From: an uncultured Chloroflexia bacterium
GTDB taxonomy: Bacteria > Chloroflexota > Anaerolineae > Anaerolineales > RBG-16-64-43
Assembly: GCA_963780865.1 (NCBI GenBank)
Contig: CAWADT010000013.1
Coordinates: forward strand, 246,491-310,490
DNA: 64,000 bases
Reading direction: 5' to 3'
Below are positions 9,584 through 62,779 of this stretch, piece by piece; position 1 is the first letter of the stretch; the number at the start of each line of letters is the position of its first letter. The notes below the pieces were generated by a model. The model had not been told where the DNA came from. It did not search any database and saw only the letters and a program-made list of their open reading frames with translations. A program made the translations under genes and the position numbers.

Positions 9584-9624
9584 CCGGGTGTGTTTCGTGA
9601 TCCACTTTCGCAAAGAGAAAGAAG

Positions 9625-10015
9625 TGGAGATGGCGGGAATTGAACCCGCGTCCGAGAAGATTCGCCTTCAGATATCTACGGGTATAGCCGAATTGTTACC
9701 TCTCGGCGACCGGGTATTCATCCGGCGGAAAACCCCGGTTCACCAAGCCGCTTGGGCCCGAAAGCCCTCTTTCGCGCACGTCGCGACGTCGTGCGCGGCA
9801 CTTTGGCTTTGTCGCGCCTGGATTTCTCCCAGCCAAAGTTAGGGAGAGCCAGACGTGACCCCTTTTGGGGTCAGGCTCTATATTGCGGGTTAGGCCGCAA
9901 CAGGAAGAGCGGAGTAAGTGTGATTGGCACTTTGGTTTTGCGCTGATTTACCGAGTTCGGCGCCTCTCGACCCGCAATCTGAAAACAGCCTCCTCCGTCG
10001 ATACCTTTCATCCCC
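9625..10015 (-). ncRNA. ssrA: tmRNA, tag peptide (A)ANHTYSALPVAA*
   Basis: 5' GGGGATG pairs with 3' CATCTCC-A including the G3:U Ala identity pair; T-arm GCGGGTTCAATTCCCGC; tag ORF 9928-9890; immediately downstream of smpB; CCA not fully encoded. Confidence 0.95.
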
Positions 10016-11150: not shown

Positions 11151-11364
11151 TTATCCAGCTCTCGCGGGATGATGAATCCCCCGAAGCTTATCCCGCCTTC
11201 CTCTTTATTAATCGAAGAATACGGGGCAAGCCCCGCACTCCTCTATATTAATCGAAGAGTGCGGGGCAAGCCTCGCAGTTCTTGGGGGTTGCGCTCCCCC
11301 GGCCTCGCCCGGCGAAGCCGGGGCGGGGCTTGATACCGCGCGGCTTGCCGCGCGGTCATTCATT
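11151..11364. repeat. Dispersed palindromic element, copy A (expanded, with an internal 40-bp tandem duplication at 11199-11278)
   Basis: TTATCCAGCTCTCGCGGGATGA start, GTTCTTGGGGGTTGCGCTCC core, ACCGCGCGGCTTGCCGCGCGGT hairpin, TTCATT end; similar to copies at 32096, 36087, 43170. Confidence 0.75.
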
Positions 11365-57731: not shown

Positions 57732-58901
57732 TTAATACAGGAACATCGGTTTGCCCAGCATGTCCCGAATTCGCGGGCGGTAGGTATCTTTGTCGTAGAG
57801 CGCGCCGACGTCGACGCGTTTCTTCCCCTGGACGATCATATCGAGGGACACCGTCGTGTAGATGCCTTGCTGCAACGCGACCATCCGGCCGGTATGCCCC
57901 AGCGCCACCTGGTCGAGGGCCAGGTTGCCGAACGAACTGGCCACCATGCGGTCCAGCGCGTCCGGCGCGCCGGAGCGCATGATGTACCCGAGCTGCTGGT
58001 ACATGATATTCACCCCGGTCCGGCGTTTGACTTCATCCGCGGTGTAGTGGCCGATGCCGCCGAGCTTTTGATGCCCGAAATCGTCGGCTTCCCCGCGCTG
58101 GTGGATTTCGCCGCCGGCTTCGTGGGCGCCTTCGGAAATAGTCATGATGGCGTAATGGGAAGGGGAGGCATTGCGGTCGGCCACCAGGAATTTGCACAGC
58201 TTGTCCAGGTCGAAGGGGACCTCCGAGATGACCGCCCGGTCCACATTGGACAGGTACGCGGCAAACAGCGAGGTCTCGCCCGAATTGCGGCCGAACAGTT
58301 CGACCACCCCAAGGCGTTCGTGGGACCCGACGGATGTCCGGAAATTGGTGATGGCGTCGACGGAGCGCGTGACGGCGGTTGAAAAACCGATGCAATAGTC
58401 GGTTCCGAAGACGTCGTTATCCATTGTTTTGGGGATGGCCACGGCGCGGAACCCTTCCTGGTGCAGCCGGCTGGCGAAGGAAAGCGTATCATCTCCGCCG
58501 ATGGGGATGATTGCCTCCAAACCGAGGGTATCCAACACCCGGAGCACATGCTTGGTGCAATCGACCGTTCCTTTATCGGTATTCACCCGGTCTTCCGCAC
58601 GGACATGCTCGGGGACGTCGGCCGGTTTTACGTTGGATGGATTGGTGCGCGAGGTGTGCAGGAACGTTCCACCGGTGCGATCGATGGTGCGTACGGTTTC
58701 CGGCGTCAGTGTGAAGGAATATTTCTCAATGGATTCGGGATCTTCCGGGTTGATCCGCAGGACGCTCATCCATCCGCGGCGCAATCCGACTACCTCGATA
58801 TTATTCTCCTGGGCGCGGGTGACCACCGCCCGGATCGCCACATTCAGGCCGGGAACATCGCCGCCTCCCGTTAAAATCCCAATTCGCAATTTCGCCGCCA
58901 T
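57732..58901 (-). CDS. pfkA: 6-phosphofructokinase (PfkA family)
   Basis: '[10 protein letters not shown]', 'GGTFLHTSR', 'IGGDDT', 'PKTMDND'. Confidence 0.93.
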
Positions 58902-59802: not shown

Positions 59803-59952
59803 AGCTGCCCTCCAATAAAAATTCACCCGCATGGATTTGACACTATTTATTCCACGAATTTCTTCCAAGAATAAATCCTTTGCAAAGAGCGGATGGGGGA
59901 GTTGGATCCGAATAATTTCTGCGTCTTGCCGTCCATCCAATTGCCTGATATG

Positions 59953-59986
59953 ATTATGTAAGCTAATGTATATTATCTTACGTAAT
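59953..59986. other. dif-like tyrosine recombinase site (11-6-11 core at 59956-59983)
   Basis: ATTATGTAAGCTAA-TGTATA-TTATCTTACGTAAT; arms are 12/14 inverted-identical; TAATGTATATTAT is shared with E. coli dif. Confidence 0.65.
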
Positions 59987-60002
59987 AACACAGGAAAAAA
60001 CC

Positions 60003-61058
60003 TTGAAGATCAACCAGGCTATTGATTCCTTCTTTTCTGAATTCCAATTCCCCTTGGAATCTAAAAACACCCGCCGGACGTATAAAACCGCTTTAACGAA
60101 ATTCTCTGAGTATGCAAAAGAATCTAATTTACTCTCAAGAGATCTTTTATCCATCGAGCCTTCCATTGTCAGCCTCTTTGGCGCCTGGTTGCTTTCCCAG
60201 GGTTTAACTGAATACACCCAGAATATATATGAAAGCGCTTTGAGACGAGCGCTCAATTATTGGCGAATAAAAGGATGGATTCAGTTTTCAAGCGATATTG
60301 AAAAAGAAACTAGATTGGCTATGCGAATTAGGTCGAAAAAGGGGAATTTCTCGGCCAGTTCGAGGGTTGGAAGGGTTCCGGAGGACTTTGGAGACCGAAT
60401 GGCGCAAGTGGCCGATTTAAATGCGTTACCAGAAAAAAGCCGCCTCCAACGGCTAAACGTTCTTCGCGCAAGGGCGCTCATCCATCTTCTCCGCGCTACC
60501 GGACTGCGCATCGGCGATGTTTGCCGTTTCACCAAATCCGATCTGCGCGATGCGAAATCCCGCGGAGGCTATTTCACCCTCCCGATGCAAAAGACGGGAA
60601 CGCTCGCGCATTGTTTTCTCGGGGAAGAAGCAATCCACAACCTTGAGTTTTATCTCAAGGAACGCTCCGATTCCTCCCCCTGGGTCTTTATCCAACATGG
60701 ACGCACGGGAAAGGTCCGGCCCGGCACAACCCAATTCTTCCGATCGACCGTCCGGGGATATGGCTCCAAACTCTCCCCGAAGACCGCTTGGGAGATTGTC
60801 CGCGCGATTGGTCACCAGGCCTATGGCCGGACGACGACGCAATTCATCTCCCCCCACGCTTTCCGCCATTGGCACGCGCAATCCCTGATCCACGCCGGCG
60901 CCCGCCTGGAAGACGTGCAATCGGTGTTGGGGCATGCCAATCCGGTCATTACCAAACAAATATACGCTCCGGAACCTGACCTCTCCAGAATCTCGGAAAA
61001 AGAGCGCATCCTCCAGAAGACCCGGCCAAAGATAAAAAAAAACATCGCCGGTGATTGA
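60003..61058 (+). CDS. Tyrosine recombinase (XerC/D-like)
   Basis: Complete catalytic set: TGLR, QKTG, HAFR, LGH, QIY; N-terminal core-binding domain 'SKNTRRTY'. Confidence 0.92.
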   Translation: MKINQAIDSFFSEFQFPLESKNTRRTYKTALTKFSEYAKESNLLSRDLLSIEPSIVSLFGAWLLSQGLTEYTQNIYESALRRALNYWRIKGWIQFSSDIEKETRLAMRIRSKKGNFSASSRVGRVPEDFGDRMAQVADLNALPEKSRLQRLNVLRARALIHLLRATGLRIGDVCRFTKSDLRDAKSRGGYFTLPMQKTGTLAHCFLGEEAIHNLEFYLKERSDSSPWVFIQHGRTGKVRPGTTQFFRSTVRGYGSKLSPKTAWEIVRAIGHQAYGRTTTQFISPHAFRHWHAQSLIHAGARLEDVQSVLGHANPVITKQIYAPEPDLSRISEKERILQKTRPKIKKNIAGD

Positions 61059-61091: not shown

Positions 61092-61168
61092 TGGGGTGGC
61101 TGACGGGGATTGAACCCGCAACAGCTGGATCCACAGTCCAGCGCTCTGCCAATTGAGCTACAGCCACC
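61092..61168 (-). tRNA. tRNA-His (anticodon GTG)
   Basis: G-1 encoded, GTGGCTG/CAGCCAC stem, loop CTGTGGA, C73 and CCA encoded. Confidence 0.96.
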
Positions 61169-61186: not shown

Positions 61187-62467
61187 TCATTCGCCCGGAG
61201 ATCCGGCAAGCCTGCGTATGATTTCTTTCGATAATTCCGCCCGGTCGAACGTCGCTTGCTCCCTCCGGAGGAGATCCTTCAAGGTGGCCTTGCCTGACCG
61301 GATTTCATCCGGTCCTAAAATTACCGCCAGAGGGATTCCCAGAGCATCCGCATATTTCAATTGTTTGGGAAGCCGATCCGGCGCTGGGTACCACTCCGCG
61401 GCAATTCCAGCAGCCCGCAGTGATTGCGCGACTCCCATCGAGGCGGCCGCTTCCTGTTCGGAAAACGTGGTCACCAGCACATCGGCCGGGGCGATCCTGA
61501 GCGTCGGCTCCTTCCCGTTTTTTTTCAAGATCAACCCGATGACTACGTCGCCCATGGCAAACCCCACTCCGGGAATTTTCCCGCCCCCGACGTCGGCGAC
61601 CAAATTGTCGTAGCGCCCGCCGCCCAGCAACGCGCGAAATTCGCCGGCCGCATCCCGCCCCTCGAACACCGTCCCCGTGTAATAATCCAGCCCCCGGATT
61701 ACCGCCGGGTTGAATTCCACATAGTCCGAAATTCCAAAGGCTTTCACGGCGTCGAAGAAATCCACCAACTCGCGGGATTGCTTCCATAAATCCCGGTCGT
61801 CGAGTATTTTGGTTAATCCTTGAACCTGCCCGGCAGTCAATCCCGTTTCCCGGGCGAAGGCCTCCCATTCGGGCGGTTTCATTTTTTCCTTTTTATCTAT
61901 CATTCGGAAGGTCGCTCCGACCGCCTCCCCGCGGATGCCGATCGCCTCCAAGGCGGCATCCATCAGCCGCCGGTTATTCACTTGCAGTTTCACCTCGCGC
62001 GGGCTAAGCTCAACGGCATGGAAGAATTCGCACGCGACGGCCGCCAGTTCCGCGTCCGCCTGAGGATTCTCCACTCCCAGCAAATCGACGTTCCATTGGA
62101 AGAACTCGCGGGTACGCCCTTTCTGAGGCGTTTCATACCTCCAGAAAGGCCCAAACGACCACCAGCGGACGGGAAACGCGAGCTGATGGATTCGTTGGGC
62201 GACCATTCTGGCCAGGGAGGGAGTCAATTCCGGCCGCAGGGTGATCGGTTCGCCGCCTTTGTCGGGAAAAACGAAAGCCTGCTTCTTGACCAATTCCTCC
62301 CCGGATTTTGCGGAATACAGTTCCAAGGTTTCCAGAAACGGGGCATCGAACTCCTGATACCCGAATTTTCGCGAAACCCCGCGAATTTTCTCGTATAACC
62401 AGTTCCGGAAGGCCATTTCCGCCGGATAATAATCTCGTGTTCCTTTTACCGAAGAGGTGATTTTCAT
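61187..62467 (-). CDS. hisS: Histidine--tRNA ligase
   Basis: 'KGTRD', 'LRPELT', 'RYETPQKGRTREFFQ', 'RGLDYYTG', 'GGGRYD'. Confidence 0.97.
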   Translation of the reverse strand: MKITSSVKGTRDYYPAEMAFRNWLYEKIRGVSRKFGYQEFDAPFLETLELYSAKSGEELVKKQAFVFPDKGGEPITLRPELTPSLARMVAQRIHQLAFPVRWWSFGPFWRYETPQKGRTREFFQWNVDLLGVENPQADAELAAVACEFFHAVELSPREVKLQVNNRRLMDAALEAIGIRGEAVGATFRMIDKKEKMKPPEWEAFARETGLTAGQVQGLTKILDDRDLWKQSRELVDFFDAVKAFGISDYVEFNPAVIRGLDYYTGTVFEGRDAAGEFRALLGGGRYDNLVADVGGGKIPGVGFAMGDVVIGLILKKNGKEPTLRIAPADVLVTTFSEQEAAASMGVAQSLRAAGIAAEWYPAPDRLPKQLKYADALGIPLAVILGPDEIRSGKATLKDLLRREQATFDRAELSKEIIRRLAGSPGE

Positions 62468-62627
62468 TATGGCTCCCTGGATTCCCGACATCCTCGCCGC
62501 AGTTTGAGCGCTCACCCCCCGGTGAAAATAACTCGTCTCGTGATTATAAGGCAGGCCGGGCGTCACTGCGCGAGGGTATTGGCCGGCGGATTTTCTCCAC
62601 CCATTGCTTGTTTGCCCGCCGGTGGAT

Positions 62628-62656
62628 AAAAAAAAGCGACCAAGAACTTGGTCGCT
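62628..62656 (-). terminator. Intrinsic terminator after tRNA-Pro
   Basis: AGCGACCAAG/CTTGGTCGCT stem followed by a U-tract on the minus strand. Confidence 0.75.
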
Positions 62657-62658
62657 GC

Positions 62659-62736
<78 letters not shown>

Positions 62737-62779
62737 GAACTTCCATTATATTCGACGTTCCGGATCTTGACCAGACCCG

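Follow-up and report, generated by a model that had tools for sequence, protein, structure and literature searches.

We describe here a 34-bp inverted repeat and the tyrosine recombinase gene directly downstream of it, found in a 64,000-nucleotide stretch of DNA (the window) from an uncultured bacterium of the Anaerolineales that corresponds to C13:246491-310490 of the G000 genome assembly (3.09 Mb in 31 contigs, 92.9% complete). The repeat is most likely the chromosome dif site, and the adjacent 351-amino acid protein the dedicated Xer recombinase, of this lineage; together they would make up a module for resolving chromosome dimers with a single gene and a single site, in the arrangement known from XerS/difSL. 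Judging from sequence comparisons the recombinase, which we call type A, appears to represent a new Xer family. The Xer/dif reading was first made in an original prediction from the letters of the window, and it is now supported by an evolutionary footprint over the site, by the single copy of the site in the genome, by the co-occurrence of gene and site among relatives and by the convergence of oriented motifs upon the site. Those of the checks proposed with the prediction that were run either favor it or agree with it.

The candidate dif site occupies window positions 59953-59986, with no strand assigned. Its left arm, ATTATGTAAGCTAA (59953-59966), and right arm, TTATCTTACGTAAT (59973-59986), flank the central hexanucleotide TGTATA (59967-59972) and are complementary at 12 of 14 positions over their full length and at 9 of 11 within the inner 11-6-11 core (59956-59983). 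A gap of 16 nucleotides separates the site from the TTG start codon of the recombinase open reading frame (ORF; 60003-61058, plus strand), and a Shine-Dalgarno-like AGGA, assigned by its sequence, lies 7 nucleotides 5' of that codon (59992-59995, plus strand). At the same alignment position orthologues have ATG or GTG. This geometry is as the original prediction had it, and the likeness that it saw to the centre of E. coli dif is also borne out, the two sites sharing TAATGTATATTAT (dif sequence as given in the available text of PMC3025954). In an alternative register, TTATGTAAGCT (59954-59964) would be the counterpart of the B. subtilis XerD arm, with 10 of 11 positions identical, and the centre would lie upstream; this was rejected because conservation runs downstream rather than upstream.

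A consensus scan indicates that the recombinase gene is probably transcribed from a sigma-70 promoter at 59926-59954 (plus strand), composed of TTGCCG, a 17-nucleotide spacing and TATGAT, with a TG at 59946-59947 typical of an extended −10 element. The −10 hexamer shares the first two bases of the candidate site, so the predicted occupation of the promoter by the site holds, and in the orthologue alignment a TTGA-type −35 and a TATnAT −10 subsequence stand at the equivalent place. With the site directly adjoining the −10 box and spanning the likely start of transcription, the recombinase, once bound there, would probably act as a repressor of its own gene.

The protein scores 80.4 bits against the Pfam family Phage_integrase (PF00589; cut-off 27.1) and, in Pfam terms, consists of a SAM-like core-binding domain at the N terminus followed by the catalytic domain, with no arm-binding domain. 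Its R-K-H-R-H-Y set is intact, as had been stated: the catalytic R, K, H-x-x-R, H and Y align with those of XerD (1a0p) and XerA (4a8e), and R169, K197, H285, R288, H311 and Y321 are invariant across 12 family members. It falls below the cut-offs of every specialized model to which it was compared, namely XerD (TIGR02225; 84.7 bits, cut-off 329.6), XerC (TIGR02224; 68.7, cut-off 335.15), XerA (NF040815; 71.2, cut-off 220), XerS (NF003462; 22.1, cut-off 267), integron integrase (TIGR02249; 24.8, cut-off 265) and the Fim-type tyrosine DNA invertases (22.7 and 21.4, cut-off about 221), and is a member of none of them. An invertase was rejected in any case, the site being single with no inverted pair bounding a switch segment, and the protein does not belong to the phage or integrative and conjugative element integrases, lacking an arm-binding domain and having a site unrelated to tRNA. 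The best match among solved structures is XerA 4a8e (phmmer against the PDB, E 5.7e-13), and the same search does not reach XerH. An AlphaFold model (predicted local distance difference test score 79) retrieves Cre 2hoi as its top fold match (E 1.2e-10), together with XerH 5jk0 (E 1e-7), XerA, Tn1549 Int and lambda Int, the general tyrosine recombinase fold that does not discriminate among families. In a tree of 34 rows, built without XerS, XerH and XerA, type A forms its own clade at 100/99 support, apart from Cre, from the lambda and P4 integrases and from E. coli XerC plus XerD; this tree does not settle in what order type A, the types B and C described below and XerCD branched at depth.

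Orthologues of 67-87% identity are found in nine relatives belonging to two (g1 and g3) of the four genera of the family, g1 to g4; the window's own genome, G000, belongs to g1. All nine loci for which upstream DNA is available (G000 counted) retain gATATnaTTATGTAAGCTAATG[tg][ta]TATTAT[ca]TTAC, and this conserved block of about 40 bp covers the −10 box and the site while the remaining spacer has diverged. Across orthologues the left arm is invariant, the centre reads TGTATA, TGGTTA or TGTTTA, and the right arm varies. A search of the 3.09-Mb draft with up to 10 of 34 mismatches revealed no second copy. Among the 21 genomes of the family, all of them drafts, the site is present once each in ten: in 4/4 of genus g1 (G000 counted) and 6/8 of g3, and in 0/3 of g2 and 0/6 of g4, with no match in any of the 21 for a reversed-pattern control. 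The distribution of the gene in the family matches that of the site, and the two g3 genomes without a site are G011, in which the start of the gene falls at a contig end, and G019, which is 88% complete and in which no gene was found.

The symmetry of the site by itself does not show more than chance. Palindromes of the form 14-6-14 with at least 12 of 14 matches number 168 in the genome, most of them terminators or repeats resembling repetitive extragenic palindromic sequences, and six fall within the window versus 0.2 in shuffled sequence. It is because the site is conserved, single-copy and positioned at the convergence of motifs that we regard it as non-random. Generic xTAA-N6-TTAx palindromes occur 16 times genome-wide, with no other in the terminus part of C13. 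Palindromic repeats of two families occur at window positions 11232-11265 and at many further genome sites, C5:11163-11236 and C16:108474-108567 among them: CCCGCACTCCTCTA-TATTAA-TCGAAGAGTGCGGG, partly in tandem arrays, and CCACCTTCTCCCAG-CTTATG-CTGGGAGAAGG.., with roughly 25 or more copies.

The location of the site was assessed from oriented motifs. On contig C1 the cumulative GC skew reaches its minimum exactly at the dnaA gene (C1:67888-69213), which fixes the skew convention, and skewed 8-mers were learned on 2.5 Mb of skew-oriented contigs from which C13 beyond 200 kb was excluded. The most skewed of these, GGGCGGGG (263:100) and GGGCAGGG (143:42), are close to the FtsK-orienting polar sequences (KOPS) of E. 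coli as given in the available text of PMC3384302. On C13, where the candidate site is at 306443, GGGN[AG]GGG changes orientation at 304647-310931, with plus-oriented copies making up 102 of 130 to the left and 10 of 33 to the right. GGGC[AG]GGG flips at 304196-310931 and the thirty most skewed 8-mers at 304864-305383 (support 304199-307163). Within the window 21 of the 29 copies of GGGNRGGG are plus-oriented, all left of the site, the last plus-oriented copy before it being at 58157-58164; to its right the first minus-oriented copy comes at 310931 of the contig, some 440 bases past the window end. Gene-strand bias along C13 gave no usable signal.

The motif GGGN[AG]GGG was fixed beforehand and then tested in three relatives. 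In G020, a g3 genome with a 2.81-Mb contig, the site is at 1299691 and the flip at 1297968-1299891 (plus-oriented copies 81/94 left versus 24/100 right). In G005 the site at 166667 falls within the flip at 166495-167140 (54/68 versus 5/28). In G001 the site is at 108759 and the flip at 104342-104607, with a support interval of 100975-113224 that takes in the site (42/54 versus 5/20); there GGGC[AG]GGG flips at 106499-113224 (22/24 left, 0/5 right). The terminus test proposed with the original prediction is mixed, though favorable on the whole: the KOPS-like flip falls at the site in G000, G020 and G005, and in G001 within its support, and the skew inflection fared less well, as described below. 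Two genes encoding an FtsK gamma domain are present in the genome.

These observations suggest how the module might work. Recombinase monomers would bind the two arms of 11-14 bp, the invariant left arm being likely the stronger binding site. FtsK, translocating along GGGNRGGG motifs that point to the site from both sides, would bring the two dif sites of a dimeric chromosome together at the septum, and a recombinase tetramer would then exchange strands across the 6-bp centre to yield monomers.

Two further recombinase types in the order bear on this reading. Type B, a well-conserved recombinase found in other families of the order, is 323-336 amino acids long, is 21-28% identical to type A and groups in a separate clade of its own (support 100/99). 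Its genes are associated with a two-armed site, ...GATAAG-N-TTAT..., downstream of a promoter with TTGACA and a −10 box. By eye this site is present in about 9 of 13 loci, with the left half only in two and none in the other two; an automatic scan (at least 9 of 11) recovers it in three loci plus one with a 5-bp spacer, and a loose type B pattern run over five genomes gives about as many matches as controls. The type B loci are G032:C1:1452751-1452778 (L094), L026-L034 and L096-L099. In the closed 6.37-Mb genome G032 the type B site at 1452751 coincides both with the GC-skew peak and with the motif flip at 1452030-1452827 (50/59 versus 4/47), so that this genome serves as a control of the method: an unrelated recombinase of the same order whose site is exactly at the terminus.

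Type C is a third recombinase, found in genera g2 and g4, and no palindrome occurs upstream of its genes. In G018 a distance of 39 kb separates the type C gene from the motif flip and the skew peak, and the only AT-rich island at the flip is AATGCAACTCAA-TGTATC-TAAAGTTGCATT (C4:445359-445388). The corresponding candidate dif of these genera, AATGCAAC[TA]CAA-TGTATC-TAAAGTTGCATT, is at their motif flip and 36-39 kb from the type C gene, and was further located at G004:C6:42745, G010:C6:121270, G007:C104:4110, G016:C108:4754 and G009:C126:12518. It is single-copy in 3/3 genomes of g2 and 3/6 of g4 and present in 0/12 of g1 and g3, a distribution complementary to that of the type A site.

Several results weigh against the assignment of the window site as dif and of type A as its dedicated, single Xer. 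Besides the skew sign change at dnaA, only one other is clear in the assembly; it is the maximum at 228-230 kb of C13, which precedes the window by about 16 kb and is 77 kb from the site, close to it without coinciding. In G020 the peak (near C3 1.39 Mb) is about 90 kb from the site, on the same side of the gene, and in G005 (C248, about 80-130 kb) it is 37-87 kb away. These offsets correspond to 2.5% of the genome in G000 and 2.5-2.9% in G000 and G020 together, a displacement from the inflection that counts against a terminal dif in a weak form; outliers among known dif sites relative to skew are put at under 3% in the available text of PMC3025954. Across the family, some 40-90 kb separate the candidate dif from the GC-skew peak, which is in every case upstream of the recombinase gene; in G032, which belongs to another family, site and peak coincide. 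Fork meeting and dif may be uncoupled from each other here.

Not every motif set points to the site. The top ten 8-mers flip at 284-285 kb of C13, with support that stops 0.9 kb short of the site, the top hundred flip at 228 kb and track base skew, and GGGNAGGG alone flips at 322-323 kb with support that takes in the site. GGGC[AG]GGG flips 7-17 kb away from the site in G020 and 17 kb away in G005. Moreover, because the four genomes are kin with shared synteny, their positional tests are replicates of one history. Orthologues are confined to two of the four genera of the family, and the near-symmetry of the arms claimed in the original prediction stands for genus g1 (9/11) and falls to 8/11 in g3.

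Nineteen loci with more distant homologues, of 42-44% identity, have, by eye, no adjacent palindrome; among loci of 37-40% identity an adjacent palindrome is present in three of the four that are readable, and the upstream region of the fifth, L124, is masked. The homologue in the cultured Longilinea arvoryzae (42% identity) does not stand at a sharp flip, and the skew peak there is some 35 kb away from it. Near that skew peak, at positions 88992-89019 of G239:C2 (NZ_DF967973.1) and 25 kb from the gene, there is a sequence ATACAATATAA-TATAGA-TTATCTTACAT whose right arm is identical to that of the window site at 10 of 11 positions, and which we offer as a lead only to a candidate dif of this cultured relative. 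In G040, a genome of the order that has a 40% homologue and 34% GC, there are only 14 copies of the motif, 10/10 of them plus-oriented before the gene and 0/4 after it. Separately, over about 120 kb of the same genome (G040:C2:30000-150000) the GC skew is very strongly positive, at +0.12 to +0.35, with no flip at the recombinase gene.

Type A is also not the lone recombinase that the original prediction described. PF00589 matches four places in G000, type A and three more, and all four genes are far below the XerC, XerD, XerS and XerA cut-offs. The C21 recombinase is patchy and multi-copy among relatives, with up to eight per genome, and for that reason we regard its behavior as that of a mobile element; the C23 recombinase is of phage type and joins lambda Int in the tree. 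A copy of the candidate dif site with three mismatches, additional to the one at the type A gene, was noticed on another contig of G001 (G001:C104:12874-12901; L077:1501-1528), 5 kb from a homologue of the C21 gene; Pfam searches of the surrounding ORFs found no family there, and this copy may belong to an element exploiting the host Xer or be a plasmid resolution site. The C29 recombinase-like gene (C29:30995-32104; L004:880-1989) has lost catalytic residues (R to K, H to D and H to L), and its product is probably inactive. Speaking against a competing system, the type A orthologue is in two relatives, G020 and G008, the sole PF00589 match besides this degenerate type and plausibly the only active tyrosine recombinase. 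No XerC- or XerD-grade gene exists in G000. Among 201 Chloroflexota genomes (a tally that takes in G065 and G199, both flagged unpublished) XerD-grade matches are common elsewhere in the phylum and weak or missing in this order, where 6 of 20 genomes match at 1e-41 to 1e-52 and G000 gives none.

Of the order's 41 genomes, 38 carry one copy of the gene for the degenerate protein, with identities of 43-89%, a degree of conservation that no active recombinase in the order reaches. This counts against a single enzyme; the protein could be a partner of type A, and "single recombinase" is a provisional description. A two-protein system, in which type A would be the sole catalytic subunit and the degenerate protein would bind or organize one half-site, nevertheless seems unlikely to us. 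It would account for the near-constant presence of the degenerate gene and for the different rates at which the two arms of the site evolve, but the protein is kept at this level of identity though the candidate sites of types A, B and C share no arm, and its gene is unlinked to the site.

Less probable still is the proposal that the palindrome is only an autoregulatory operator or promoter element, that the recombinase acts elsewhere and that the position of the site reflects inherited synteny. The overlap of the site with the −10 box and likely transcription start is what such an operator would show, and the synteny shared by the test genomes makes their positional agreement partly one event. 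There is, however, no other copy of the site or related site in the genome at which the recombinase could act; the architecture is that of an 11-6-11 recombination site with a variable centre and conserved arms; and the unrelated type B system is arranged alike, exactly at the terminus of the closed G032 chromosome.

The neighborhood of the gene bears on a third alternative. The eight surrounding ORFs that were scanned include those for PFK, a DeoC aldolase, histidyl-tRNA synthetase (HisRS) and an FHA regulator, others being without a family, and Pfam detected no phage or conjugation families among them, as had been stated. A tRNA-His gene (61092-61167, minus strand) lies 34 nucleotides past the recombinase stop codon and is present in eight of nine orthologue loci; we regard it as conserved context and no part of the mechanism. 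This tRNA gives some color to the suggestion, raised with the original prediction, that the locus is a relic of a mobile element, an integrase with a leftover att core, and P1 Cre/lox shows that mobile elements too may keep a site upstream of the recombinase gene. Yet the recombinase gene stands between site and tRNA, which have no sequence in common, the protein lacks an arm-binding domain and groups with neither lambda nor P4 integrase, the neighbors are housekeeping genes, gene order is syntenic across two genera and a tRNA is present at 0/15 distant family loci, so that we give this explanation almost no weight. A tRNA-Pro gene is also found in the neighborhood (62659-62736). The longest HisRS ORF (519 amino acids; 61187-62746, minus strand) overlaps it, and the HisRS domain does not begin until residue 99; translation probably starts farther downstream. 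Elsewhere in the window a tmRNA was called at 9624-10015 (minus strand), whose tag, AAHDVATCAKEGFRAQAAW, has an unusual ending.

Finally, an RNA or DNA hairpin in the 5' leader controlling translation or stability is hardly credible: as RNA the arms of the g1 site could form pairs at 13 of 14 positions if a G-U is included, but the right-arm changes of g3 are uncompensated in the invariant left arm and lower the pairing to 9 of 14, the opposite of what a conserved hairpin would display. The pattern of arm conservation fits two protein-binding half-sites instead.

Returning to a dif site served by its own adjacent Xer, we tentatively raise a broader possibility, that Xer/dif in the Anaerolineales is a replaceable cassette. 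There would be at least three non-orthologous recombinase-site pairs, two of them with a promoter-embedded site and two swapping within one family, with site distributions that are exactly complementary; in this lineage dif would keep a conserved distance of 40-90 kb from the skew switch, with dimer resolution and fork meeting uncoupled; and the dead recombinase-like protein, retained throughout the order, would possibly be a shared accessory subunit. Such turnover of Xer within one bacterial family bears on how these modules get replaced.

To our knowledge chromosome dimer resolution is near-universal and only a few solutions to it are known: XerCD, XerS, XerH and XerA. The locus described here points to a further recombinase family for this task in the Anaerolineae, a large and poorly cultured class of Chloroflexota to which dif surveys had not extended. 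The site would mark the terminus in fragmented metagenome assemblies, and the compact pair of a 351-amino acid enzyme and a 28-34-bp site is a candidate recombination tool. We found no literature on Xer/dif or dimer resolution, KOPS and FtsK included, in Anaerolineae or Chloroflexi. Class-specific simple recombinases have been suggested to replace Xer in some taxa (PMC8138268), a paper whose main text, as far as available, does not mention Chloroflexi, and an earlier dif survey covered the phylum by three Dehalococcoides genomes only, according to the available text of PMC3025954.

Among known systems, P1 Cre/loxP provides the top fold match and resembles the proposed module in that a homotetramer acts on a symmetric site 5' of the gene, with promoters between them (record annotation). 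It differs in being plasmid- or phage-borne, in its 13-8-13 sites, in having no FtsK control and in occupying a long separate branch. XerA is not known to require FtsK; in the present genome FtsK gamma genes and polar motifs are found. The difH site, for its part, is not known to adjoin xerH. The XerA/dif system of Archaea (4a8e, 5hxy) is alike in using a single recombinase, and XerA gives the best sequence match among solved structures. XerH/difH of the Campylobacterota likewise involves a single chromosomal Xer on an atypical dif (PMC3325230, available text), and XerH (5jk0, 5jjv), compared by fold only, has a similar fold.

With E. coli XerCD/dif the module shares the 11-6-11 arrangement, an identical central TGTATA and inner TAA/TTAT, and the convergence of G-rich polar octamers on the site; each arm matches the E. 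coli XerD arm at 8 of 11 positions (compared by hand; dif from the available text of PMC3025954). Unlike XerCD, the module would rely on one enzyme, which falls in a separate clade and whose gene adjoins the site. The arrangement is that of XerS/difSL in the Streptococcaceae as the available text of PMC1914069 describes it: one recombinase of about 350 amino acids, a site directly 5' of its own gene, a location at the terminus and a role standing in for XerCD. The authors of that work also suspected that difSL lies in or after the promoter. FtsK dependence has been shown for XerS, according to the same text, and is a prediction here; and whereas difSL is 31 bp long, the site described here is an 11-6-11 element of 28-34 bp with another sequence, in another phylum.

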